Shown piece after piece: positions 6,597 through 63,257 of a DNA stretch of 64,000 nucleotides. How positions within the stretch are numbered: the first letter of the stretch is position 1; the number at the start of each line of letters is the position of its first letter. The position numbers were made by a program, and so were the translations under genes. The DNA comes from Mobula hypostoma (lineage: Eukaryota), in contig NC_086097.1 in assembly GCF_963921235.1 (NCBI RefSeq), forward strand, positions 7,998,001 through 8,062,000, read 5' to 3'. The notes under the pieces were generated by a model. It ran no database searches. It was not told where the DNA came from and saw only the letters and a list, made by a program, of their open reading frames with translations.

Positions 6597-8075
6597 AGAA
6601 ACATAGAAACATTTTAAAAAACCTACAGAACGATACAGGCCCTTCGGCTCACAAAGCTGTGGCAAACATATCCTTACATTAGAAATTACCGAGGGTTACC
6701 CATAGCCCTCTATTTTTCAAAGTTGCATATACCTGTCCAGGAGTCTCTTAAAAGACCCTATCGTATCCGCCTCCACCATTATCGCCGGCAGCCCATTCCA
6801 CGCACTCACCACCCTCTACGTAAAAATTTACCTCTGATATCTCCTCTGTACCTACTTCCAGGCACCTTAAAACTGTGCCCTCTCGTGCTAGCCATTTCAG
6901 CCCTGGGAAAAAGCCTCTGACTATCCACATGATCAATGCCTCTCATCATCTTATACACCTCTATCAGGTCACCTCTCATCCTCCACCACTCCAAGGTTTT
7001 TTCGGCCTTTTTTGGCCGAGTTCACTCAACCTATTCTCATAAGGCATGCTCCCCAAACCAGGCAACATCCTTGTAAATTTCCTCTGCACCCTTTCTATGG
7101 TTTCCACATCCTTCCTGTAGTGAGGCGACCAGATCTGGAGTCCAAGTGGGGTCTGACCAGGGTCCTATTTAGCTGCAACATTACCTCTCAGCTCCTAAAC
7201 TCAATCCCATGATTGATGAAGGCCAATGCACCATATCCCTTCTTAACCACAGAGTCAACCTGCGCAGCAGTTTTGAGTGTCCTGTGCACTTGGACCCCAA
7301 GATCCCTCTGATCCTCCACACTGCCAAGAGTCTTACCATTAATACCATATTCTGCCATCATATTTGACCTGCCAAAATGAGCCACCCCACACTTATCTAG
7401 TTTGAACTTCATCTGCCATTCAAAGCCCTGTTTTGCATCCTTTCAATGTCCCGCTGTAACCTCTGACAGCCCTCCACACTATTCACAACACCTCCAACCT
7501 TTGTGTCATCAGCAAATTTACTATCCCATCCCTCCACTTCTTCATCCAGGTCATTTATAAAAATCATGAACAGTAGGGGTCTCAGAACAGATCCCTGAGG
7601 CACACCACTGGTCACCAACCTCCATGCAGAATATAACCCATGTACAAACACTCTTTGCCTTCCGTGGGCAAGCCATTTCTGGATCCACAAGGCAATTTCC
7701 CCTTGGATCCCATGCCTCCTTACTTTCTCAATAAGCCTTGCATGGGGTACCTTATCAAATGCCTTGCTGAAATCCATATACACTACATCTACTGCTCTAC
7801 CAACATCAATGTGTTTGGTCACATCCTCAAAACATTCAATCGGGTTCGTAAGGCATCACCTGCCTTTCCTGAAGCCATGCTGACTATTTCTAATCATATT
7901 ATGCCTCTCCAAATGTTCATAATTCCTGCCTCTCTGGATCTTCTCCATCAATTTACCAACCACTGAAGTAAGACTCACTGGTCTATAATTTCCTGGACTA
8001 TCTCTACTCCCTTTCTTGAATAATGGAACAACAGCTGCAACTCTCCAATCCTCCGGAACATCTCCCGTCCCCACT
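6597..8075 (-). mobile_element. CR1 LINE, 5'-truncated RT region, degraded
   Basis: Peptides [56 protein letters not shown] and MRGDLIEVYK. (TTCTATGT)n tail. Confidence 0.95.
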
Positions 8076-8721
8076 GAGGGAACGTATTCTGGTTTTCCAC
8101 ATTACAACCAGACATTTACTACCTGTAAGGGATTGGTGTGTTGCTGTGTGCTTGACATCCGAAAGTATAGCTAACAAAGCTTCTTTCATTTGTATTACCT
8201 CAGTATTATTTCAAACTTTAGTAACATGATGTAGTTCATTTTATGCATAGTTAGGATTTGATAAAGGACTACAAACACTTGCATTGTAAAACTGCAAGTT
8301 GCTGTTCCAAATGCAGCATTGGAAATGTTATTATGAATTGAAATTCATCATGACCACATACCTTTCTTTTTTTAATCCTTCATGTTTCAGAATTAGATTT
8401 ATTGTCACTGGTGTAGAGCGTGAAATATGTTGTTCGCAGCAGTGGTAGAGTGCAAGGCATAAAATACATACATTACATAAAAATAAAAAGTGAAATATTA
8501 ACAATTAATGAGGTACTTATTCTTAGGTTTATGGACCATTTAGAAATCTGATGCCAGAGGGGAAGAAGCTGTACCTAAAACATTGAGTGTGTGCCTTCAC
8601 GCTCCTATACCTCCTCCTTGGAGTCTAGTTGGCTATCGTGTTATAGGCTGAGAAATCTTGGGAGTGGAATGAAGTGAGTCACTCTGAGTGAGAATGTGTA
8701 TTTTAGAAAAGATCAGAGACT

Positions 8722-11363: not shown

Positions 11364-12940
11364 TTAGTCATAGTCATAGTCATACTTTATTGATCCCGGG
11401 GGAAATTGGTTTTCGTTATAGTTGCACCATAAATAATAAATAGTACTAGAACCATAAATAGTTAAATAGTATTATGTAGGTTATGCCAGTAAATTATGAA
11501 ATAAGTCCAGGACCAGCCTATTGCTCAGGGTGTCTGACCCTCCAAGGGAGGAGTTGTAAAGTTTAATGGCCACAGGCAGGAATGACTTCTTGTGACGCTC
11601 TGTGCTGCATCTCGGTGGAATGAGTCTCTGGCTGAATGTACTCCTGTGCCCACCCAGTACATTATGTAGTGGATGGAAAACATTGTCCAAGATGGCATGC
11701 AACTTACACAGCATCCTCTTTTCAGACACCACCGTGAGAGAGTCCAGTTCCATCCCCACAACATCACTGGCCTTACGAATGAGTTTGTTGATTCTGTTGG
11801 TGTCTGCTACCCTCAGCCTGCTACCCCAGCACACAACAGCAAACATGATAGCACTGGCCACCACAGACTCGTAGAACATCCTCAGCATCGTCTGGCAGAT
11901 GTTAAAGGACATCAGTCTCCTCAGGAAATAGAGACGGCTCTGATCCTTCTTGTAGACAGCCGTAGTGTTCTTTGACCAGTCCAATTTATTGTCAATTCAT
12001 ATCCCCAGGTATTTGTAATCCTCCACCATGTCCACACTGACCCCCTGGATGGAAACAGGGGTCACCGGTACCTTAGCTCTCCTCAGTTCTACCACCAGCT
12101 CCTTAGTCTTTTTCACATTAAGCTGCAGATAATTCTGCTCACACCATGTGACAATGTTTCCTACCGTAGCCCTATACTCGGCCTCATCTCCCTTGCTGAT
12201 GCATCCAAATATGGCAGAGTCATCAGAAAACTTCTGAAGATGACAAGACTCTGTGGAGTAGTTGAAGTCCAAGGTGTAAATGGTGAAGAGAAAGGGAGAC
12301 AAGACAGTCCCCTGTGGAGCCCCAGTGCTGCTGATCACTCTGTCGGACACACAGTGTTGCAAGCACACGTACTGTGGTCTGCCAGTCAGGTAATCAAGAA
12401 TCCATGACACCAGGAAAGCATCCACCTGCATTGCTGTCAGCTTCTCCCCCAGCACAGCAGGGCAGATGCTGTTGAACGCACTGGAGAAGTCAAAAAACAT
12501 GACCCTCACAGTGCTCGCTGGCTTGTCCAGGTGGGCGTAGAAACGGTTCAGCAGGTAGACGATGGCATCCTCAACTCCTAGTCGGGGTTGGTAGGTGAAC
12601 TGGAGGGGATCTAAGTGTGGCCTGACCATAGGCCGGAGCAGCTCCAGAGCAAGTCTCTCCAGGGTCTTCATGATGTCGGAGGTCAATGCCACCGGTCTGT
12701 AATCACTGAGGCCGCTGGGGCACGGCGTCTTCGGCACAGGGATGAGGCAGGACGTCTTCCACAGTACAGGAACCCTCCGGAGCCTCAGGCTCAGGTTGAA
12801 GACATGGCGAAGTACTCCACATAGCTGAGGGGCACGGGCTTTGAGCACCCTGGTACTGACACTATTCGGTCCTGCAGCCTTGCTTGGGTTGAGACGTTTC
12901 AGCTGTCTTCTCACCTGTTCAGCTGTGAAGCCCACTGTGG
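11364..12940 (-). mobile_element. Rex1/Babar LINE, 5'-truncated, nearly intact RT domain (young)
   Basis: ORFs 11997-12935 and 11481-11984: KAAGP, DYRPVALTS, DPLQF.YQ, FFDFSSAFN, TGAPQGTVLSPFLF, FSDD, YKYLG. One small deletion/frameshift. (ATGACT)n tail at 11364-11384. Confidence 0.95.
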
Positions 12941-13119
12941 TTTATCATATGTAAATTGTAGCATGGAGTGAAAGGTGTCATTAGGGTTAACAACCAACAC
13001 TAGCTAAGGATGGGCTGAGGACAGCCGGCAAATGTCACCACTTATTCCAGCGCCAACATAGCGTTTCCACAATGTTCAGCAGAGCAACATCAGCAAGAAA
13101 AGAACAACAGTAAAACAAG

Positions 13120-17210: not shown

Positions 17211-18055
17211 CTTTACTTTACTTTACACTTTATTGTCACCAAACAATTGTTACTAGAACGTACAATCATCATAGCGATATTTGATTCTGCGCTTCCCACT
17301 CCCTGGATTACAAATCGATAGTAAATATTAAAAATTTAAATTATAAATCATAAACAGAAAATAGAAAAATGGAAAGTAAGGTAGTACAAAAAAACCGAGA
17401 GGTAGGTCCGGATATGTGGAGGGTACGGCCCAGATCCGGATCAGGATCCGTTCAGCAGTCTTAGCACAGTTGGAAAGAAGCTGTTCCCAAATCTGGCCGT
17501 ACGAGTCTTCAAGCTCCTGAGCCTTCACCCGGAGGGAAGAGGGACGAAAAGTCTGTTGGCTGGGTGGGTCGTGTCCTTGATTATCCTGGCAGCACTGCTC
17601 CGACAGCGTGCGGTGTAAAGTGCGTCCAAGGTCGGAAGATTGGTTTGTGTGATGTGCTGTGCCGTGTTCACGATCTTCTGCAGCTTCTTCCGGTCTTAGA
17701 CAGGACAACTTCCATACCAGGTTGTGATGCACCCTAGAAGAATGCTTTCTATGGTGCATCTATAAAAATTAGTGAGGGTTTTAGGGGACAGGCCAAATTT
17801 CTTTAGTTTTCTCAGGAAGTAAAGGCGATGGTGGGCCTTCTTGGCAGTGAACTCTGCTTGGTTGGACCAAGACAGGTCATTTGTGATATTGACCCCGAGG
17901 AACTTAAAGTTTTGACCACCACCGATGTAAATTGGGTCGTGCGGTCCACTACTCCTTCTGAAGTCAACAACCAATTCCTTCGTCTTGCTGATGTTGAGGG
18001 ATAGATTATTGTCTTCGCACCATGCCACCAGGTTCTTAATTTCCTCTCTGTACAT
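17211..18055 (-). mobile_element. Rex1/Babar LINE 3' part (young subfamily)
   Basis: WCEDNNLSLNISKTKELVVDFRR...FKFLGV..RLYFLRKLKKF. Near-identical to 42548-43430. Confidence 0.95.
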
Positions 18056-18477
18056 CCAAGTCAGAATAAGATTCATTATCCCTGACTTATATGATCTGAA
18101 ATTTATTGATTTTTGGTCACAGTACACAAGACATAAAATTACTATAAATTGCAAAACACAACAAAAAAGAACGAGTTAGTGTTCATGGACCATTCAGAAA
18201 TCTGATAGTGGACAGAATGAATCTGTTCCTGAATTGTCAAAAGTGGATCTTCAGGTTCCTGTCCCTCTTCTGTCCATTGACACAACATTCCCAGCATCAA
18301 TGGATGATATTACATTGAATATAGAACATTACAGCACAGTGCAGCCCCTTCAGCCCACAATGTTGTGCTGACCCTTTAACTTACTCTCAGATTCATCTAA
18401 CACTTCTCTCTTACATTATTCTATCATTGATGTGCCTTATAACTATTGGTCAAAATGTGAGCCATGTCAACCTTTCA

Positions 18478-19100: not shown

Positions 19101-19374
19101 CTGCCTTCAGTATTTGGCAGACTGAAGGTGGTACGACTTTTTAAGTTTAATTATCATTCAGCCATTCATGAAACCAAAGCACCAAGCAAATTCCAGAGGG
19201 CAGCACTGATGGATTCCAGCATGCCCACAAAGGCCTCTGCTGTCTGATGCACTGTCTCTGCAACTGCTCTTATTGGCGGCTGCAACAGGTGATCCCGTGG
19301 CATGTGGACCTTATCTACACCACAACTGAGGTAGCACAGCTCATCAGTGAACCAGGGATGCAGTATTCTACGTT

Positions 19375-26905: not shown

Positions 26906-28006
26906 CCATGGAGCTCCATTCTATCCTACCTTTCACACATCAGGGTCGCAGTTTCTTCACAAGTTTTCAGTCACCAGGATCCTGGTTTCCACACTCCTTC
27001 TCGCGTTCAGGGGTCTCAGTTTCCCAAGTTCCTTTGAAGTCCTTGGAGTCTATACTCTTCCATTCCCTTTAAACTCACTGAGATCCTGGTTCCCACACTC
27101 ATTTGAAGTGTGGTTCTGTCTTGCAGTGCTCCACAGACAGCTGTGGAGGCAAAGTCATTGGCAATGTTTAAAGAGGAGGTTGATAAATTCTTGATTAGTA
27201 AGGGCGTCAAAGGTTATGGGGAAAAGGCTGTAGTTAGGGTGTCTAAGGCTTTTGCACAGTACTGTATTTGTCAATGTGGAACAGAGAGCAAGTTCGTAAA
27301 TCTGGTGGGAGCAAAGGATGGTGGGAATGGTGAATTTGGAGTAGCGTGGGACAGGTGGCAGAGAAAGAGTGCTGGGGTGGGGTAGGGGGCTGTGTCATGG
27401 GTGCAGACACACAAATTGAAATTTGTGTTCTTTTTATGTCCAGAACTTGAATATAATGGGAATATGCGAGGGGTGATTGATAAGTTTGTGGCCTAAGGTA
27501 GAAGGAGTCAATTTTTATTTTTCAACATAGTCCCCTCCTGCATGTACACACTTAGTCCAGCGGTCGTAGAGCATACGGATCCCTTCTTTGTAGAAGTGGG
27601 CCACAGCAGGGAGTGATTGATAAGTTTGTGGCCTAAGGTAGAAGGAGATGAGTTATTAACTTAAAACTTTCTGCATTAACACTCAAAGAGTTGAACTGCA
27701 CGTGCATGTAACGAGAGTGTCTTGGACCTCCAGGTGGTCCACAGCAGGGAGTGATTGATAAGTTTGTGGCCTAATGTAGAAGGAGATGAATTATACAGCT
27801 CTCATTATATGCACGTGCAGTTCAACTCTGAATGATTCTGCAGAAAGTTTTAAGTTAATAGCTCATCTCCCTCTAACTTAGGCCACAAACTTATCAATCA
27901 CCCCTGCTGTGGACCACTTTCTGGAGGTCCAAGATGCCGACTTCTACAAAGAAGGGATCCGTATGCTCCACGACCGCTGGGCCAAGTGTGTAAATGTAGG
28001 AAAAAT

Positions 28007-28182
28007 TAATCACTTTCATACCTCTTACTAGTTCTTCCTTCAGTTAGTCCTGACGAAGGGTCTCGGCCTGAAACGTCGACTGTACCTCTTCCTAGAGATG
28101 CTGCCTGGCCTGCTGCGTTCACCAGCAACTTTGATGTGTGTTGCTTGAATTTCCAGCATCTGCAGAATTCCTCGTGCTTGCG
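28007..28182 (+). mobile_element. Penelope-like pLTR fragment (young subfamily)
   Basis: Near-identical to 33150-33315, 61930-62066 and 55476-55590. Confidence 0.85.
28046..28082 (+). ncRNA. Minimal type I hammerhead ribozyme motif
   Basis: AGTC | CTGACGA | A GGGT-CTCG-GCCT | GAAA | CGTC^ | GACT(G). The core is complete, with a GUC cleavage triplet and palindromic ACGT in place of stem III. Confidence 0.8.
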
Positions 28183-29184
28183 TTGAAAAATAAATGTGCT
28201 AGGGTTTCTAAAATTGACTCCTTCTACCTTAGGCCACAAACTTATCAATCACCCCTCGTACATAATGCCATGAATTTCTGTATTCTGTTCTTGGTGTTGC
28301 ACTTTAGAAAGAAAATTTTCATCTCAGAAAGAATGCAGAGTTTCTGCAGATGATGAAAATCCAAAGCAACAGACACAAAATGCTGGAAGAGCTCAGCAAC
28401 TCAGGCAACAGTTATGGAAAACATTACACAGTCTATGTTTTGGAGACACGGTCATTTGATTCCATACAATTAGTTTATTGATCATTTCAGAATGTATCTC
28501 TAGTGTTTTCTGCTCCCCCCCTTCTCCCTTCCCCATTTCCTTTCCCATTTCCCAAACATAGTTTCCTCTCCCTGCCCCCTTCCCACTCTCGGTGCACAAT
28601 AGAGACCCGTATCACATCACTCACATATGTCAAAGATGACCCTGGATTCCAACTCAGTCCTGCTGGAATGCAATGAAAAAGCAATAATATGCATTGAGGG
28701 AACATGGGCAACTTTTTTATTTCAAAATGTTCGTTCATTCTCAAGGCAGTTGCAGTGAAACACCACAATGGATTTAAAACGCTTTACATTTAATCGACAC
28801 CATTCACATCCCTTTTTGAACACTCCAGAGAGATTTCCAACTGCCTAAGTATCTCTGAATCACAGTCAATCTTTTGAAATCAGAATTAGGCAATTTATGT
28901 ACAGCAAGCTTCCACAAGCAACAACATGTAAGTGACCGGATTAGTACTTCATCCAAATTTTTATAAAGTGGTTTTGCACAGTTTTCCGGAAAATAAACTT
29001 TGATTTTTTTTTGTGTAACACACACAAACTGCTGGAGGAACTCAGCATATCAGACAGCCTCTATGGCAATGAATAAACATTCGACATTTCAGGCCTAGAC
29101 CTTCCACATTTTGCCTGTTGCTTTTTTTTTGGATTAAATAATTGCCGATGAAAAGCACGGAAGTAAAATCATAAATCAACCATG

Positions 29185-32010: not shown

Positions 32011-32358
32011 CAACATAAATAGCTGGAAAGTTCATGTGGCACCTGTCAAGAAATAAAGGGAATTAATGATGAAGGTTTTCAACCTGAAAATTCATTAACA
32101 CTTCCTTCATGTTTGCTGCTTGTCCTGCTGAGTATCTCCAGCATTTAAATCTATGGCAAAAATGGTGTGGTAAGACAGGGATATAAGGAGGAAGGTGGTG
32201 GCGTGGAGTTACATTTCTACCAAAGGAGATGTAAGGTGCTCCTTCCCTCTGCTCCCTGCAGCTCACCTTTGGGCAAGGGGTAGCACCTGCTTAGACCCAT
32301 GAAGGCACGGAAGATGGTGGTGATAGATGGTCTATGAGCAGCTGGTGCACTATCACAA

Positions 32359-33313
32359 CACACATTAAAGTTGCTGGTGAACGCAGCAGGCCAGGCAGCA
32401 TCTCTAGGAAGAGGTACAGTCAACGTTTCGGGCCGAGACCCTTCGTCAGGACTAACTGAAAGAAGAGCTAATAACAGATTTGAAAGTGGGAGGTGGAGGG
32501 GGAGATCCAAAATGATAGGAGAAGACAGGAGGGGGAGGGATGGAGCCAAGAGCTGGACAGGTGATTGGCAAAAGGGATATGAGAGGATCATTGGACAGGA
32601 GGCCCAGGGAGAAGGAAAAGGGGGAGGGGGGAAAAAACCCAGAGGATGGGCAAGGGGTATAGCGAGAGGGACAGAGGGAGAAAAAGGAGAGAGAGAAAAA
32701 GAAAAAGAATGTGTGTACATAAATAGATAACAGATGGGGTACAAGGGGGAGGTGGGGCATTAGCGGAAGTTAGAGAAGTCAATGTTCATGTCATCAGGTT
32801 GGAGGCTACCCTGACGGAATATAAGGTGTTGTTCCTCCAACCTGATGACAAGAACATTGACTTCTCAAACTTCCGCTAATGCCCCACTTCCCCCTCATAC
32901 CCCATTCGTTATTTATTTATATACACACATTCTTTTTCTCTCTCTCCTTTTTCTCCCACTGTCCCCCTCGCTATACCCCCTTGCCCATCCTCTGGGTTTT
33001 TTCCCCCTTCCACCTTTTCTTTCTCCCTGGGCCTTCTGTCCCATGATCCTCTCATATCCCTTTTGCCAATCAACTGTCCAACTCTTGGCTCCATCCCTCC
33101 CCCTCTTGTCTTCTCCTATCATTTCAGATCTCCCCCTCCCCGTCCCACTTTCAAATCCCTTACCAGCTCTTCTTTCAGTTAGTCCTGATGAAGGGTCTCG
33201 GCCCAAAACGTCGACTGTACCTCTGCCTGTAGATGCTGCCTGGCTTGCTGCGTTCACCAGCAACTTTTATGTGTGTTGCTTGAAATTCCAGCATCTGCAG
33301 ATTTCCTTGTGTT
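32359..33313. mobile_element. Penelope-like element inverted (tail-out) insertion, about 1-kb palindrome
   Basis: Antisense arm 32359-32845 encodes GIY-YIG C-terminus RLEEQHLIFRQGSLQPDDMNIDFSNFR*. Sense arm spans 32834-33313. 13-bp TSD TGCACTATCACAA (32346-32358 / 33314-33326). Confidence 0.9.
32417..32453 (-). ncRNA. Minimal type I hammerhead ribozyme motif
   Basis: Reverse complement AGTC CTGACGA A GGGT-CTCG-GCCC GAAA CGTT^ GACTG. Intact core with a GUU triplet. Confidence 0.75.
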
Positions 33314-33542
33314 TGCACTATCACAATTGCTAGTTATGACACCAGCCGGATGATCGGGGTGACCATCTTGTAAAGACACTGTCCAGAAGAAGTCAATGGC
33401 AAATCACCTCTGTAGAAAATTTTACCAAGAGCAATTATGGTCAAACACCATGATTACCCATGTCATACAACATGACAGGTAATGAATGAATGATATATGG
33501 AGCAAAGTACAGAGATGAACAAAAGGAAGGCTGGTGATATCA

Positions 33543-35150: not shown

Positions 35151-35309
35151 AACTTTCTGGATAGTTGTATATCCTTGGAGCCGTCCCTCGACACTGTAAC
35201 AAAATAGCTATGTTCTGGGTGTCAGGAGTTTGTACTCAGAAGCTGTTGGGTCAGACACCGGTAATGAATATTGAAAGAGGTTCTGCTAGTTGGGCTGTGC
35301 CACATTGTG

Positions 35310-35944
35310 CGAGGGGTGATTGATAAGTTCGTGGCCTAAGGTAGAAAGGGTCAACTTTAGAAAACCTAGCACATTTATTTTTCAACATAGTTCCCTCCTA
35401 CATTTACACACTTAGTCTAGCGGTCGTGGAGCATACGGATCCCTTCTTTGTAGAAGTCAACATCTTGGACCTCCAGAATGTGGTCCACAGCAGGGGTGAT
35501 TGATAAGTTCGTGGTCTAAGGTAGAAGGAGATGAGTTATACAGCTCTCGTTACATGCACATGCAGTTCAACTCTGAGTGATTATGCGAAAAGTTTAAAGT
35601 TAATAACTCGTTTCCTTCGACCTTAGGCCACGAACTTATCAATCACCCCTGATGAGTTATTAACTGATCAGTTATTAACTTCAAACCTCTGCATAATCAC
35701 TCAAAGAGCTGACCTGCATGTGCATGTAACAAGAGCTGTATGACTCATTTCCTTCTACCTTAGGCCACAAACTTATCAATCACCCATCTGTGGACGCTTT
35801 CTGGTGGTCCAAGATCCGTATGCTCCACGACCGCTGGACTAAGTGTGTCAATGTAGGAGGGGACTATGTTGAAAAATAAATGTGCTAGGTTTTCTAAAAT
35901 TGACGCCTTCTGCATTAGGCCACGATCTTATCAATCACCCCTCG
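35310..35944. mobile_element. Mariner-derived fold-back MITE (second copy)
   Basis: CGAGGGGTGATTGATAAG...CTTATCAATCACCCCTCG followed by TA. Near-palindromic. IRMLHDRWTKCVNVGGDYVEK* at 35815-35880 and its inverse at the left end. Confidence 0.9.
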
Positions 35945-36336
35945 TAAGTGTGTAGCGACACTAGTGTTTGTGTTGTAGTTATCATAACATGATTACAGTA
36001 CCAGAAACCTGGCTTCAATCCTCCCGCTGTCTGTATGTACTCCCTGTGTCCACGTGCATTACCTCTGGGTGCTCCCTCATTCCACAACGTACAATTGGGT
36101 CAGTAAACTGCAGGCATGCTAAGCTGCTACTGGAAGCATGATGATACAGGTACTTGCCAGCTGCACGGTCCTCCGATAGTGTTGGACCTTGATGCAAACA
36201 CACATTTCACTTTATGTTTTATGTTGTAGGCACATATATTTTTCTCTTCTAATATTTATATCTGTGCACTTCAAATGCTACTGTGACACTGTAATTTCCT
36301 TTTGGGATCAATAAAGTATCTATCTATCTATCTATG

Positions 36337-42547: not shown

Positions 42548-43630
42548 TTATACTTTATACTTTATTGTCATCAAACAATTGATACCAGAGCGTACAATCA
42601 TCACAGCGATATTTGATTCTGCGCTTCCTACTCCCTGGATAGCCAATATTAAATATTAAAAATATTTAAATAGTAAACATTAGTAAATATTAAAAAATTA
42701 AATTATAAATCATAAATAGAAAATAGAAAAATGGAAGGTAAGGTAGTGCAAAAAAGACCGAGAGGCAGGTCCGGATATTTGGAGGGTACGGCCTAGATCC
42801 GGATCAGGATCTGTTCAGCAGTCTTATCACAGTTGGAAAGAAGCTGTTCCCAAATCTGGCCGTACGAGTCTTCAAGCTCCTGAGCCTTCTCCCGGAGGGA
42901 AGAGGGATGAAAAGTCTGTTGGCTGGATGGGTCGTGTCCTTGATTATCCTGGCAGCACTGCTCCAACAGCGTGCGGTGTAAAGTGAGTCCAAGGATGGAA
43001 GATTGGTTTGTGTGATGTGCTGCGCCGTGTTCACGATCTTCTGCAGCTTCTTTTGGTCTTGGACAGGACAGCTTCCATACCAGGTTGTGATGAACCCTAG
43101 AAGAATGCTTTCTAAGGTGCATCTATAAAAATTAGTGAGGGTTTCAGAGGACAGGCCAAATTTCTTTAGTTTTCTCAGGAAGTAAAGGTGCTGGTGGGCC
43201 TTCTTGGCAGTGAACTCTGCTTGGTTGGACCAAGTCAGGTCATTTGTGATATTGACCCCGAGGAACTTAAAGCTTTTGACCTGTTCCACTTGCGCACCAC
43301 CAATGTAAATTGGGTCGTGTGGTCCGCTACTCCTTCTGAAGTCAACAACCAATTCCTTCATCTTGCTGACGTTGAGGGATAGGTTATTGTCTTTGCACCG
43401 TGCCACCAGGTTCTTAATTTCCTCTCTGTATTCAAACTCATCATTACCCGAAATATAGCCTACAATTGTTGTGTCATCAGCAAACTTATATATTGAGTTT
43501 GATGGAAACTTGGCTACACAATCATGGGTGTACAGTGAGTACAGCAGGGGGCTGAATACACAGCCTTGTGGGGCACCGGTGCTCAGAGTGATTGTAGAGG
43601 AGAGCTTATCCCCTATTTTTACAGCCTGGG
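42548..43630 (-). mobile_element. Rex1/Babar LINE 3' half, young, open frame
   Basis: ORF 42804-43630: TGAPQGCVFSPLLYSLYTHDC..KFADDTT...FKFLGV...SFFPTVIRLLN. (TAAAGTA)n tail. Confidence 0.95.
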
Positions 43631-44069
43631 TTTTAAAACTCTCACTACTCGGGGTGGAAGTTCCCACTTGCTTCAAAACCAGTGCCTAAGAAGAATTTTG
43701 TGAGCTGTTATAATGACTATCGCCCAGTAGCACACACATCTACAGTGATGAAATGCTTTGAGAGGTTGGTCATGACTAGACTAAACTCCTGCCTCAGAAA
43801 GGACCTGGACCCATTGCAATTTGTCTATTGCCACAGTAGGTCAATAGCAGATGCAATCTCAGCGGCTCTTCACATAGCTTTAATCTACCTGGACAACACA
43901 AACACCTATGTCAGGATGCTGGTTATTGACTACAGCTCAGCATTCAATACCAACATCCCTACAATCCTGATTGAGAATTTGCAGAACCCGTGCATCTGTA
44001 CCTGCCTCTGCAATTGGATCCTTGACTTCCTAACCGGAAGACCAAAGGAAGCAGCCCAAGAAACAATGG

Positions 44070-45103
44070 ATGCAAACGGGACCTTTTCAGAATGGCAGGC
44101 AGTGACCAGTGGGGTACTGTTTATAATATATATTAATGACTTAGATGAGGGAATTAAATGCAGCATCTCCAAGTTTGCGGATGACACGAAGCTCGGTGGC
44201 AGTGTTAGCTGTGAGGAGGATGCTAAGTGGATGCAGGGTGACTTGGATAGGTTAGGTGAGTGGGAAAATTCATGGTAGATGCAATTTAATGTGGATAATT
44301 GTGAGGTTATCCACTTTGGTGGCAAAAACAGGTAAACAGATTATTATCTAAATGGTGGCCGGTTAGGAAAAGGGGAGGTGCAACGAGACCTGGGTGTCAT
44401 TATACATCAGTCACTGAAAGTGGGCATGCAGGTACAGCAGGCGGTGAAAAAGGGAATGGTAGCCTGGCATTCATAGCAAGAGGATTCGAGTACAGGAGCA
44501 GGGAGGTACTACTACAGTTGTACAAGGCCTTGGTGAGACCACACCTGGAGTATTGTGTGCAGTTTTGGTCCCCTAATCTGAGGAAAGACATTCTTGTCAT
44601 AGAGGGAGTACAAAGAAGGTTCACCAGATTGATTCCGGGGATGGTAGGACTTTCATAGGATGAAAGACTGGATTGACTAGGTTTATATTCGCTGGATTTT
44701 AGAAGATTGAGGGGGGATCTTATTGAAACATATAAAATTCTAAAGGGATTGGACAGGCTAGATGCAGGAAGATTGTTCCTGATGTTGGGGAAGTCCAGAA
44801 TGAGGGGTCACAGTTTAAGGATAAAGGGGAAGCCTTTTAGAACCGAAATGAGGAAAAACTTCTTCACACAGAGAGTGGTGAATCTGTGGAATTCTCTGCC
44901 ACAGGGAACAGTTGAGGCCAGTTCATTGGCTATATTTAAGAGGGAGTTAGATATGGCCCTTGTGGCTAAAGGGATCAGGGAGTATGGAGAGAAGGCAGGT
45001 ACAGGGTTCTGAGTTGGATGATCAGCCATGATCATACTGAATGGCGGTGCAGGCTCAAAGGGCCGAATGGCCTACTCCTGCACCTATTTTCTATGTTTCT
45101 ATA
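44070..45103 (+). mobile_element. CR1 LINE, 5'-truncated
   Basis: [27 protein letters not shown]...RGDLIETYKILKG. (TTCTATGT) tail. Confidence 0.95.
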
Positions 45104-54261: not shown

Positions 54262-57242
54262 ATCCCATGAGACTTGGATGGCTCAGAGGCAGGAATGGTT
54301 ATTTAGAGTGCCAGGCTTTAGTTGTTTCAGAAAAGACAGGGAGGGAGGCAAAAGAGGTGGAGGCATGGCAATGTTGATCAGAGTTAGTGTCACGGCTGCA
54401 GAAACGGAGGAAGTCATGGAGGGATTGTCTACGGAGTCTCTGTCGGTGGAAGTTAGAAACAGGAAGGGGTCAATAACTCGACTGGGTATTTTTTATATAG
54501 CCACCCTATAGTAACAGGGACATCAAGGAGCAGATAGAGAGACAGATTCTGGAAAGGTGTAATAATAGCAGGGTTGTTGTGGTGGGAGATACTAATTTCC
54601 CAAATATTGACTGGCATTTCGTCAGATCAAGGGGGCTTAAATGGGGTGAAGTTTGTTAGGTGTGTTCAGGAAAGTTTCCTGTCACAATATGTAGATAAGT
54701 GTACAAAGAGGAGAGGCTGTACTTGATCTGGTATTGGGAAATGAGCCTGGTCAGGAGTCAGGCCTCTCAGTGGGAGAGCATTTTGGAGATAGTGATCACA
54801 ATTCTATCTCCTTTACCAGAGCATTGGAGGGGGATAGGAAAAGACAAGTTAGGAAAGCATTTAATTGGAGTAAGGGGAAATATGAAGCTATCAGGCAGGA
54901 ACTTGGAAGCATAAATTGGGAACAGACGTTCTCAGGGAAATGTACGGCAGAAATGTGGCAAATGCTCAGAGGATATTTGCATGGTGTTCTGCATAGGTAC
55001 GGTAAGGATGGTAGGTTACAGGAACCGTGGTGTACAAAGGCTGTTGTAAATCTACTCAAGAAGAAAAGAAAAGCTTACGAAAGGTTCAAAAAACTAGGTA
55101 ATGATAGAGATCTAGAAGATTATAAGACTAGCAGGAAGGAGCTTAAGAATGAAATCAGGAGAGCCAGAAGGGGTCATGAGAAGGCCTTGGCGGACAGGAT
55201 TAAGGAAAACCCCAAGGCATTCTACAAGTATGTGAAGAGCAAGAGGATAAGACGTGAAAGAATAGGACCAATCAAGTGTGACAGTGGAAAAGTGTGTATG
55301 AATCAGAGGTGTCAGCACAAGTACTTAATGAAAACTATGCTTCACTATTCACTAGGGAAATGGATCTTGGTGATTGTAGGAACACACATCAAAGTTGCTG
55401 GTGAACGTAGCAGGCCAGACAGCATCTCTAGGAAGAGGTACGTCGATGTTTCGGGCTGAGACCCTTCGTCAGGACCTGAAACGTCAACTGTACCTCTTCC
55501 TAGAGATGCTGCCTGACCTGCTGCGTCCATCAGCAACTTTGAAGTGTTTTGCTTGAATTTCCAGCATCTGCAGAATTCCTCGTGTTGGCGATTGTAGGTA
55601 TGACACAGCGGATTGAAAAGATTGAGCATACAGACATTAAGAAAGTGAATGTGCTGGAGCTTCTGGAAAACATCAAGTTGGATAAGTCTCTGGGACTGGA
55701 TGAGGTGTTCCCCAGGCTACTGTGGGAGGCGAGAAAGGAGATTGCTGAGTCTCTGGAAATGATCTGTGCATTGTCAGTGGGGATGGGAGAGGCTCCAGAG
55801 GATTGGAGGGTTGCAGATGTTGTTCCCTTATTCAAGTAAGGGAATAGGGATAGCCCAGGAAATTATAGTCCCATAAGTCTTACTTCAGTGATTGGTAAGT
55901 TGATGGAAATGATCCTGAGAGACAGAATTTATGAACATTTGGAGAAGCATAATATAATTAGGAATAGTCAGCATGGCTATGTCAAAGGCAGGTCGTGCCT
56001 TACACGCCTGACTGAAGTTTTTGAGGATGTGACTAAACACGTTGATGAAGATAGAGCAGTGGATATAGTGCATATGGATTTCAGCAAGGCATTTAATAAG
56101 GTACACCATGCAAGGCTTATGAGAAAGTAACGAGGCATGGGATCCAAGGGGACATTGCTTTGTGGACCCAGAACTGACTTGCCCACAGAAGGCAAAGAGT
56201 GGTTGTAGACGGGTCATATTCTGCATGGAGGTTGGTGACCAGTGGTGTGCCTCGGATCTGTTCTGGGACCCCTACTCTTCGTGATTTTTATAAATATCCT
56301 GGATGAGGAAGTGGAGGGATGTGTTAGTAAATTTGTTGATGACACAAAGGTTGAAGGTGTTGTGGATAGTGTGGAGGGCTGTCAAAGGTTACAGCGGGAC
56401 ACCGGTAGGATGCAAAACTGGGCCGAGAAGTGGCAGATGGCGTTCAACCTAGATAAGTGTGAGGTGGTTCATTTTGGTAGGGAAAATATGATGGCATAAA
56501 TATGGTATTAATGGTAAGACTCTTGGCAGTGTGGAGGATCAGAGGGATCTTGCGGTCCGAGTCCATAGGACACTCAAAGCTACTGCTCAGGTTGTCTCTG
56601 TGGTTAAGAAGGCATAGAGTGCATTGGCCTTCATCAACTGTGGGATTGAGTGTAAGTGTTGAGAGGTAATGTTACAGCTACATAGGACCCTGGTCAGACC
56701 CCACTTGGGGTACTGTGCTCAGTTCCGGTCACTTCACTAAAGGAAGGATGTGGAAACTACAGAAAGGGTGCAGAGGAGATTTACAAGAATATTGCCTGGA
56801 TTGGGGAGCATGCCTTATGAGAATAGATTTAGTGAACTCGGCTTTTTCTCCTTGGAGTGATGGAGGATGAGAGGTGACCTGACAGAAGTGTACAAGATGA
56901 TGAGAGGTTTTGATCGTCTGGATAGTCAGAAGCTTTTTGCCAGGGCTGGAATGGCTAACACGAGAGGGTACAGTTTTAAGGTGCTTGGAAGTAGGTACAG
57001 AGAAGATGTCAGGGGTAAGTTTTTTTATGCAGAAAGTGGTGAGTGTGTGGAATAGGCTGCCGGAGACGGTGGTGGGGGCGGATAGATAGGGTCTTTTAAG
57101 AGACTCCTGAATAGGTACATGGAGTTTAGAAAAATAGAGGGCTATGGGTAACCCTAGGTAATGTCTAAAGTAAGCATGTGTTTGGCACAGTGTTGTGGGC
57201 CGAAGTGCCTATACTGTGCTGTAGATTTTCTATGTTTCTTTC
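54262..57242 (+). mobile_element. CR1 LINE with almost complete but disrupted ORF2 (APE + RT)
   Basis: ETW..FRKDR..RGGG, VGD.NFPNIDW, LDLV..GDSDH, PKAFYKYVK, DWRVADVVPLFK, MDFSKAF, FVDDTK. Many stops and frameshifts. Confidence 0.95.
55381..55589. mobile_element. Penelope-like pLTR fold-back insertion in CR1
   Basis: Antisense arm 55381-55475 and sense arm 55475-55589. TSD GATTGTAGG (55372-55380 / 55590-55598). Confidence 0.9.
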
Positions 57243-57514: not shown

Positions 57515-57945
57515 AACCTCTCATCAGTGACTTTACTGTGGAAGACACCAGCAGGACAGCAGAAGTTCCAGGTGCCAGGGGGCATGACGTGTGTGAAGTT
57601 AACGTAATTAGAGAGAAGGTTTTTCTGAAATTGTATGGTCTGAAGTTAGATATGTTACCAGGACCAGATTGTGTACACTTCAGAGTTCTGAAAGAAGTGG
57701 TTGAAGAGATCATGGACGCATTAATAATGATCTTTTAAGAATCACTAGATTCTGGAATCGTTCCAGAAGACTGGAAAATTGAAGATCTCGCTCCACTCTT
57801 CAAGAAGGGAGAGTGCAGAAGAAAGGAAGCCATAGGTCAATTAGTCTGACCTCAGTGGTTGATTATTAAGGGTGAGGTCTCAGGGTACTTGCAGGCAAAT
57901 GATAAAATAGGCCATCGTCAGCATGGTTTTATCACGGGAAAGCTG
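57515..57945 (+). mobile_element. CR1 RT N-terminal fragment
   Basis: PGPDCVHFRVLKEV.EEI.DAL..IF...G.VPEDWK...PLFKKG. Confidence 0.8.
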
Positions 57946-57947
57946 GA

Positions 57948-59045
57948 GATGGTATTTGATCTATGCCTAGCCACACAGTCATGGGTGTAGAGAGAGTAGA
58001 GCAGTGGGCTAAGTACACATTCCTGAGGTGCATCAGTGTTGATCATCAGCGAGGAGGAGATGTTATCACCAATCCGCACAGATTGTGATCTTTTGGTTAG
58101 GAAGTCAAAGATCCAATTGCAGAAGGAGGTATAGAGGCCCAGGTTCTGTAACTTCTCAATCAGGATTGTGGGAATGATGGTGTAAAATCCTGAGCTATAG
58201 TCAATGAATAGCATCCTGGCATTATTGTCTGTACTGTCCAGGTGGTCTAAGGCCGAGTGAAGAGCCATTGAGATTATCTCTGCCATTGACCTATTGTGAT
58301 GATAGGCAAATTGCAATGGGTCCAGGTCCTTGCTGATGCAGGAGTTCAGTCTAGTCATGACCCACCTCTCAAAGCATTTCATCACTGTAGTGCTACTGGG
58401 CGACAGTCATTAAGGCAGCTCACATTACTCCTCTTAGGCACTAGTATAATTGTTGCCTTTTTAAAGAAAGTGGGAACTTCCACCTGTAGCAGTGAGAGGT
58501 TGAAAATGTCCTTGAATACTGCTTCCAGTTAGTTAGCACAAGTTTTCAGAGCCTTACGAGGGACTCCTTGGGGCCTTCCGCTTTGCGAGGGTTAACCCAC
58601 TTTAAGGACAGCCTAACATCGGCCTCTGAAACAGAGATCACAGGGTCATTGGGTGCAGCAGGGATCTTCACAACAATAGTTATATTCTTCCTTTCAAAGT
58701 GGGCATAGAAGGTGTTGAGTTCATCTGGTAGTGAAGCATCACTGCCATTTTCGCTTTGTAGGAAATAATGTCTTGCAAACCCTGCCAAAGTTGTCATACA
58801 GCCAATGTTGCCTCCAATCTTGTTCAAAATTGTCTCTTTGCTTTTGAAATAGTCTTCCACAAGTCATCCCTCGTTTTCTGGTACAGGCCCATGTCACTAG
58901 CCTGTTTGCCACAGATCTGGCCTTCAGCAGATGACGTACCTCCTGGTTCATCCACGGCTTTTGATTTGGGAATGTACAGCAAGTCTTTATATGCACACAC
59001 TCATCCACACAGGTTTTAATGAAGCTAGTAACAACTGTAGCATAA
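57948..59045 (-). mobile_element. Rex1/Babar LINE internal fragment
   Basis: FPNQKPWMN, LPDELNTFYAHFE, MKCFER..DPLQFAY..FIDYSSGF. Same subfamily as 42145-46321. Confidence 0.9.
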
Positions 59046-61845: not shown

Positions 61846-62066
61846 TCCCCTTTTGCCTATCACCTGTCCAGCTCTCGGCTCTATCCCTCCCCCTCCTGTC
61901 TTCTCCTATCATTTTGGATCTCCCCCTCCCCCTCAAACTTTCAAATCCCTTACTCACTCTTCCTTCAGTTAGTCCTGACGAAGGGTCTCGGCCTGAAACG
62001 TCGACTGCACCTCTTCCTATAGATGCTGCTTGGCCTGCTGCGTTCACCAGCAACTTTGATGTATGT
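61846..62066 (+). mobile_element. Penelope-like pLTR insertion in CR1
   Basis: 14-bp TSD TCCTATACACAATA (61832-61845) / TCCTGTACACAATA (62067-62080). Confidence 0.9.
61971..62007 (+). ncRNA. Minimal type I hammerhead ribozyme motif
   Basis: AGTC CTGACGA A GGGT-CTCG-GCCT GAAA CGTC^ GACTG, identical to 28046-28082. Confidence 0.8.
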
Positions 62067-63257
62067 TCCTGTACACAATAGTTTGATTTATGAAGGTTAA
62101 TGTGCCAAAAGCTTTCATTAGAACCCTAGTAACCTTTGATGCCACTTTCAATGAATTATGGACCTGTATTTCCAGATACCTTTGTTCTACCATACTCATC
62201 AGTGCCCTACCACTCACAGTATAAGACCTATACTTGTTAGGGCTACTGAAGTGCAATACCTCGCACTTGTCGGCATTAAATTCAATTACGTCTGCCATTT
62301 TTTCAGCCAATTTTTCCAGATGGTCCATATCCCACTGCAAGCCATGATAATCTTCCTTGCTGTTCACTACACCCTCAATTTTTTTAGGTATAGATAAAGA
62401 GAAGTCAATTTTTTTAGACCAGCAATTAGGAATATTATCACAGCCAGTACTTTTCGACTGGTGGGTATATTTTATAACCTCTTTCAGCAAATCCATTTTA
62501 AGCTCAGGTGTTTGCATTTCTTCAATCATGTGTGTGTGTTCTTTTCCCTCCCCAATCCAGCTTGCTCCTTGACTGTGTGTCACCCTATTTGACTGGATAT
62601 TAGAACAAACTTTCATTAACTCCGTGTTTGTTCGTAATTCTGTGCTAGGGTTGGTGATATTTTTGTTCATCAAATTTAGTTTTAATGTCCTATATAAACC
62701 TTTTTCATTGTTTTTGAACTGATAGTTCTGTTTTCTTCATCCGGTGCATTCCATGTATCTATTTAGTCTGGTTTTGTATGCACCAAGCTTTTGTTTTAAT
62801 GTATCTATAAACTCCACAGTGCTTTTGCTAGGTTGGTCATATCTTGTGTGGACTTTATATTTCCTTACTATTTCCTGAACTTTTCTCTTACCTTTCTTAT
62901 TCTTGTTCTTCTTTGAGCACATCTACATAAAACACTATTGTAGGAAAACAGCATCCATCATCAGAGATCCCCACCACCCAAGTCCTGTTCTCTTCTAATT
63001 GCTGCCATCAGAAAGAAGGTAAAAGAGCTTCAGGACTTGCACCAGGTTCAAAAACAGTTATTACCTCTCAACCATCAGGCTCTTGAATAGAAGGGGATAA
63101 AAACCCTCCCTTGCCCTGTCATTGAAATGTTTCTACAATTAATAATCTCATTTTAAGGACTCTTTATCTCATTATCTCATGGTCTCGTTATTTATATTCG
63201 CATTTGCACAGTTTGTTGTTCCTGCACTCTGGTTGATCTTTCATTGATCCTGTTATA

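Follow-up and report, generated by a model that had tools for sequence, protein, structure and literature searches.

At positions 28002–28181 (+) of the window, the 64,000-nucleotide stretch of Mobula hypostoma DNA analysed here, a 180 bp piece of a Penelope-like element (PLE) is inserted in a mariner-like transposon. The piece is a 3′ tail whose 5′ part has been truncated. When compared with the rest of the window by blastn, its homology to other copies begins at ~28011–28021 and stops at 28181, and since it runs to 28181, this copy possesses the optional ~36-nt "tail" extension of the family (28146–28181, +). Its alignment to a complete tandem unit of the element, of the kind described below, stops at +138, where + and − positions are counted from the start of the hammerhead core and the cut site is +28. 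Furthermore, in contigs of all four public runs 28001 is followed immediately by 28182, the mariner-like repeat being present there in its empty-site form. The runs come from four coded organisms and were used as contigs; their "RNA" label is a guess, and they are therefore uninformative on expression or RNA ends. The host itself (27456–28271) is what remains of a mariner-like DNA transposon and contains inverted duplications; related copies lie at 35306–35946, and the uninterrupted form of the host in public contigs has ~9–12 extra letters at the position of the PLE fragment.

Judged from its sequence letters, the segment at 28045–28082 (+) of this fragment is a letter-perfect minimal hammerhead motif. 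Its helix I would pair the 5′ strand UAGUC (28045–28049) with the 3′ strand GACUG (28078–28082), and the layout is the open type I, with a helix I of 5 bp including one U:G (at least 4 bp being expected). The core strand from C3 to A9, CUGACGA with C as N7, occupies 28050–28056 and is followed by an unpaired extra A (28057) between A9 and position 10.1. Such an extra A is typical of PLE minimal hammerhead ribozymes (min-HHRs; PMC4209133), and its column is at least 90% conserved across 37 aligned copies of the family. Helix II consists of 4 bp, GGGU (28058–28061) with GCCU (28066–28069), has a G:U at 10.1–11.1 and a U:G on top, and carries the loop CUCG (28062–28065). The second core strand comprises GAAA (28070–28073; G12, A13 and A14, then A15.1), C-G (28074–28075), U16.1 (28076) and C17 (28077), and within it the palindrome ACGU (28073–28076) replaces helix III. 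The invariant core, CUGANGA ... GAAA ... U16.1 H17, is complete in this copy and is also kept in the majority line of the 37 copies. The predicted cut at the GUC site falls 3′ of C17, between 28077 and 28078. The first-pass annotation had described the core strands, the extra A, the tetraloop stem II, the ACGT palindrome and the GUC site, and we found each of these features as it had been read.

One pair of helix II differs from the published pattern. G10.1–C11.1 is a trait of the min-HHR class (PMC4209133); in the 28045 copy the pair is G:U, not G:C. Among 33 distinct copies of the family, it is GC in 14, GU in 11, AU in 2 and something else in 6. In the four public runs, T28069 reads C in 26–66% of the depth, and the C-to-T change at this position sits at a CpG. 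G10.1–C11.1 is probably the ancestral state in the family, and the G:U of the 28045 copy would have arisen by a CpG change. A third variant of the motif, altered in two letters at the top of helix II and in its loop, was present in 4 of the 37 aligned copies (L020:3467–3504, L024:6243–6280, L019:94–131 and L024:4707–4744).

Downstream of the motif, a second tail block (28095–28145, +) was delineated by per-column conservation, and the 3′ ends of short-form copies (+92 to +95) fall at its end. Across subfamilies, these ~50 nt after the hammerhead are conserved at least as well as the hammerhead itself. The predicted fold of the block was not better than that of shuffles (z = −0.50). The block may be a recognition or start region for reverse transcription.

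Further copies of the motif are scattered through the window. A search with the 28-nt core, allowing up to 3 mismatches, gave 5 matches vs. 0 in 100 shuffles, and a looser gapped pattern gave 3 matches vs. 0 in shuffles. A strict min-HHR descriptor, which requires the core, a helix II of at least 3 bp, a palindromic 15.2–16.2, U-H and a helix I of at least 4 bp, with the bulge optional, found 8 loci in a contiguous 264-kb part of the genome vs. 0 in 20 first-order Markov simulations. Three of these loci are inside the window, at 28045 (+), 61970 (+) and 32417 (−). An nhmmer search of the window gave 22 tail fragments; 17 of these retain the hammerhead block in whole or in part, in agreement with the earlier estimate of about 17 fragments. 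The closest same-strand, letter-intact copy to 28046 is the one at 61970, 34 kb away; it belongs to a truncated copy (61956–62070, +) with a letter-identical hammerhead (61970–62007) that ends at +95 and has no tail.

Two ~500-bp truncated copies of the same PLE family form a head-to-head inverted pair at 32217–33335, with the last codons of the GIY-YIG open reading frame (ORF) at their junction. The hammerhead block of one (32417–32454, −) is intact by the strict descriptor, and that of the other (33180–33217, +) is mutated at G12. A tblastn search with the family ORF as the query located the last ~30 GIY-YIG codons at 32852–32760 (−) and part of them at 32790–32879 (+), bearing out the earlier observation that two copies are fused to a GIY-YIG C-terminus. 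The same search revealed an older, stop-riddled piece of this ORF at 19130–18935 (−), beside the copy at 18.6 kb. No GIY-YIG match came from a Pfam scan that covered 150 of the 157 ORFs of at least 78 aa in the window, and a regular expression for the YIG motif gave no relevant match. Another inverted pair of this family, at 55378–55590, has its junction within the hammerhead block. Some head-to-head pairs, this one and those in L001 and L002 (around 1430–1600), have the junction in or up to ~20 nt from the block, and minus-then-plus pairs no more than 1 kb apart occur at least six times among the exact genome matches listed. The window as a whole consists almost entirely of transposon remnants, including LINE-type reverse transcriptase (RT) fragments at 7412–8101, 11484–12941, 17699–18175, 42807–44275, 55840–56496 and 57921–58406. 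In several of these, Pfam ALKBH8_N matches directly follow the RT domain.

By tracing longer copies upstream, we reached an open frame with a GIY-YIG match that ends ~300 nt before the motif. Complete units were found in two arrays, L039 (G000:C40:575501–585500) and L040 (G000:C21:136336501–136346500), in which hammerheads in direct order are 3,510 and 3,516 bp apart, one per unit, and the tandem units are 99.5–99.6% identical. In these units, the hammerhead is located ~300 nt past the stop codon of an ORF with RT and GIY-YIG domains and ~60–140 nt ahead of the open frame of the next unit, that is, in the terminal repeat, where PLEs carry this motif. A 785-aa open frame matched RVT_1 at residues 276–438 (E = 4.3e-5) and then GIY-YIG at residues 688–762 (E = 3.2e-3), both with Pfam scores under the curated cut-offs. 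Its nearest protein-atlas clusters (score 0.98) are eukaryotic, of the same length, and have the architecture HTH_animal + DUF8422 + RVT_1 + GIY-YIG; a PDB sequence search with the element protein gave 0 matches. The coding region of L039 is open in two overlapping frames of 304 and 785 aa, which could be due to a frameshift, to an intron or to the presence of two ORFs; other copies have single frames, the longest being 1,039 aa.

The 5′ ends of the copies vary from −3 to −3,510 on a common 3′ end. Of 23 copies, 5 have their 3′ end at +92 to +95, 3 at +102 to +106 and 10 at +127 to +138, 4 continue into the next unit, and the remaining diverged copy aligns only to +59. The family exhibits partial tandems that form pseudo-LTRs (pLTRs), an inverted 5′-truncated copy at the upstream end (as in L039) and an optional 30–40-bp 3′ tail. 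Taken together, the RT with its C-terminal GIY-YIG, the pLTR tandems, the inverted truncated partners, the tail and the hammerhead in the pLTR identify a canonical EN+ PLE, and the carriage of the motif by a PLE pLTR, which the first-pass annotation had proposed, is supported by these units. At 1567/1568 of L041, an older truncated copy (90%) begins exactly where a younger one (98% to the unit) stops. PLEs tend to insert at or beside existing copies, and this arrangement fits that tendency.

How large is the family? The searched genome comprises 3.48 Gb and 200 contigs. In it, the 28-nt core with up to 2 mismatches gave 110,559 matches, and an intact 34-place IUPAC family pattern, which demands all invariant core letters, the pairs of helix II and three of those of helix I, gave 53,078 exact matches; the reversed control of each gave 0. 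The high copy number suggested earlier is thus borne out. The N-terminal part of the ORF gave 32,816 first-look candidates, and open frames reach 1,039 aa among the 150 that were scored. In 264 kb, we counted 72 tail fragments, with the hammerhead block whole in 44, partial in 22 and absent in 6; all invariant letters are kept in 21 of the 45 rows that are gapless in the core. A rough extrapolation of 72 fragments per 264 kb, from this one region, amounts to ~0.9 million fragments genome-wide. By comparison, the min-HHR counts of ~4,000 in the coelacanth and ~9,000 in Xenopus were termed remarkable (PMC4209133), and a study of amphibians gives 126,247 canonical type I hammerheads for the ~28-Gb axolotl genome (PMC7229834). 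With at least 53,000 intact motifs, the family is far above the coelacanth and Xenopus counts and comparable in number to the canonical hammerheads of the axolotl.

The motif shares its unusual features with the min-HHRs described by Cervera and de la Peña in 2014 (PMC4209133), which supports the earlier assignment to the PLE-type minimal hammerheads. Similarly to the motif studied here, those ribozymes combine a type I topology and a full core with a helix I of 4–5 bp and with a nucleotide left unpaired between A9 and 10.1; they lack a helix III loop, and their 15.2–16.2 is palindromic. They are likewise located in PLE terminal repeats and occur in many solo copies of truncated PLEs and in opposite-strand pairs 100–700 bp apart. 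By contrast, helix II has 4 bp in the Mobula hypostoma family and 7–8 bp in the Schistosoma families (PMC4209133). We found no cartilaginous fish in the text of that paper or in its supplement file 2, and a query of searchable literature text gave one unrelated paper and none that prints the sequence of the family.

The Poseidon PLE PAc of the green anole (Frangieh et al. 2024, PMC11167929) is likewise a vertebrate EN+ element of the form pLTR-ORF-pLTR with a hammerhead in the pLTR. PAc has two RT start sites that give rise to an optional 30–40-bp tail, matching the two clusters of 3′ ends in the Mobula hypostoma family, and such a tail is named as a PLE signature in PMC8557442. The elements differ in that the hammerhead of PAc contains the start of its ORF, at stem II (PMC11167929), whereas in the Mobula hypostoma family the entire motif is upstream of the open frame. 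The amphibian non-LTR retrozymes and satellites (de la Peña et al. 2020, PMC7229834) also occur in very many copies in a vertebrate genome; they are tandem units of 330–350 bp with a short looped helix III, loop–loop contacts and circular RNAs. The Mobula hypostoma family, unlike these, has 3.5-kb protein-coding units and is without helix III.

What does the sequence say about activity? The hammerhead models of Rfam, Hammerhead_1 among them, have the same catalytic core letters; they gave 0 matches at the gathering score in the whole window and none at E values up to 10 in 27900–28250; these models expect a helix III. The predicted minimum free energy (MFE) structure of the monomer, at −12.2 kcal/mol, is an alternative hairpin, and hammerhead helices I and II together reach −7.6 kcal/mol. 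In this hairpin, G5-A6-C7-G8 pairs with C15.2-G16.2-U16.1-C17, hiding both core strands. The C7 of the 28045 copy is what lets G5–G8 pair with C15.2–C17 in a more stable, inactive hairpin, and a naturally occurring copy in which position 7 is A has helices I and II as its MFE structure. The monomer fold had a z-score of −0.24, giving no thermodynamic support. By nearest-neighbour folding, the double-hammerhead dimer reaches −12.7 kcal/mol vs. −32.7 kcal/mol for the best dimer MFE.

The alignment of the copies (37, of which 33 are distinct) gave no covariation. Paired cells amounted to 83.1% vs. 82.8% in shuffles, a value equalled or exceeded by 215 of 500 shuffles, and the covariation score was 0.166 vs. 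0.169 in shuffles, reached by 272 of 500, with double changes in 4 cells. This test has low power, because the sample consists of decaying copies of essentially one lineage. The helices are 83% paired vs. 13–43% when the partner strand is slid; given that paired cells are not in excess over the shuffles, the helices rest on the complementarity of a shared sequence and not on covariation. Of the two family-level properties that the first-pass annotation had named as conditions of its reading, the conserved core is present in the majority of the 37 copies, and the covarying stems gave no signal in this sample.

Among the copies of the family, the hammerhead block is kept no better than the next 50 nt, and most of the variants in the four runs are transitions at CpG sites, G12-to-A and C17-to-U among them; such CpG-type variation, extending even to G12 and C17, indicates that inserted copies decay neutrally. 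Two subfamilies with barely alignable flanks nevertheless have the 38-nt hammerhead block in common despite the divergence around it, which speaks for selection on the source elements. Within the block, the subfamilies differ at N7, in loop 2 and at positions that tolerate wobble pairing. Contigs have loose ends before the block, at 28046, in four of the four runs and behind it, at 28083, in three of the four.

We consider it very probable that the motif is a min-HHR of a PLE-family pLTR and that the 28045 copy is a truncated, partnerless fragment of such an element. This copy, at 28045–28082, has an intact sequence but no tandem partner, its C7 permits the inactive hairpin, and it is most likely catalytically silent at its locus. 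Lacking helix III, a single motif cannot by itself close the three-way junction, and so two copies would be needed. By analogy with related elements, two motifs in one long transcript would pair through their ACGU palindromes (4 bp) and their helix I strands into a double hammerhead, in which each core would use the C17 and the helix I 3′ strand of the other RNA. This double hammerhead, probably aided by the element's own protein, would cut after C17 and thereby trim or separate the unit RNAs. Protein-assisted cleavage was demonstrated for PAc only (PMC11167929).

Reverse transcription would start ~65 or ~100 nt downstream of the cut, two sites seen in this family as the two clusters of 3′ ends, and would often stop early. 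With the RT start 3′ of the motif and with such early stops, short dead-on-arrival fragments would inherit the motif passively, which would account for the tens of thousands of solo copies. Since the cut site (+28) is upstream of both 3′-end sites (~+93 and ~+130), an RNA cut at the downstream pLTR would lose the RT start; the template must consequently stay uncut there, as was described for the anole element (PMC11167929). Cleavage could thus serve only at the upstream pLTR, by freeing the unit from an upstream co-transcript or by separating tandem units.

Could the block instead have been kept for a role other than cleavage, for example as a structure for protein binding or template recognition or as promoter DNA, or do the hammerheads merely hitch-hike on PLEs? 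We regard this as unlikely, though with some evidence in its favour. Catalytic mutants of the anole hammerhead left in vitro insertion unaffected (PMC11167929), hammerhead-free PLE clades proliferate well, a situation in which the authors raise parasitism (PMC8557442), and in the present family the adjoining block, which is not a hammerhead, is equally conserved. However, all 11 of the 11 invariant catalytic letters, together with the bulge and the palindrome, are retained in two subfamilies whose flanks can hardly be aligned, and PLE hammerheads of fungi, plants and protists cleave well (PMC4209133).

Could the tens of thousands of solo motifs, on the other hand, be active ribozymes that cleave themselves or each other and cut host transcripts, as the first-pass annotation had supposed for any transcript running through them? 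Each of the 53,078 sequence-intact copies would in principle be enzyme and substrate at once, since within a double hammerhead each RNA's C17 is cut by the core of its partner. Dimer-dependent cleavage has been published for related motifs (PMC7229834 and PMC6765202), including amphibian type I hammerheads that are weak as monomers and better as dimers (PMC7229834). Against this, cleavage of min-HHRs was undetectable for single motifs and low for dimers (PMC4209133). Moreover, the anole PLE hammerhead required the element's protein for cutting, and no RNA-seq ends were detected at its site (PMC11167929), the active fold of the 28045 copy is not its predicted fold, and its dimer would be held by only 9 intermolecular bp and is predicted to be ~12 kcal/mol less stable than two monomer hairpins. 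Given the undetectable monomer cleavage, the low dimer cleavage and the dependence on protein in the anole element, the proposal that host transcripts are cut is unsupported, and we consider activity of the solo motifs improbable.

We would also give only a slim chance to a more elaborate reading, in which the family, with ~8 times the per-base hammerhead density of the axolotl, is very young and possibly mobile, the self-inhibition by C7, its dominant variant, is an adaptation, and the dispersed copies are cleavage sites in host RNAs that can be switched by a protein or a partner. If this were true, self-inhibition by C7 would spare the 3′ pLTR from a cleavage that removes the RT start sites, and it would explain both the success of the family and the weak activity of min-HHRs.

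That the ~100–180-bp fragments form an independent non-autonomous element, either a non-LTR retrozyme or a SINE-like repeat, is very improbable. Most fragments are indeed short, and a preprint (10.64898/2026.07.22.740005) derives vertebrate retrozymes from PLE pLTRs, one chondrichthyan example being included. The 5′ ends are, however, continuous from −3 to −3,510 on an autonomous unit, and a same-strand pair 460 bp apart proved to be two independent truncated insertions of different age. A non-LTR retrozyme proper, with non-coding tandem units of 150–450 bp, was rejected on the spacing of 3,510 bp with an ORF and, among the two close pairs examined, on the 460-bp one. Finally, a chance resemblance to a hammerhead, for which one could cite the lack of an Rfam match and of covariation, is hardly credible and was rejected by the descriptor simulations of 264 kb (0 loci in 20, vs. 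8 found) and by the position of the motif exactly where PLEs carry hammerheads.

The min-HHR of a PLE pLTR thus remains our preferred reading of the motif. For the locus at 28002–28181 itself, nothing unusual follows from it; the fragment is dead. For the class described in 2014, the family is a large and apparently young addition, probably from a cartilaginous fish, with no fewer than 53,000 intact motifs in a genome of 3.5 Gb. Furthermore, its near-identical tandem units could offer a natural setting in which to learn what PLE hammerheads, whose role PMC8557442 calls unclear, do in vivo.
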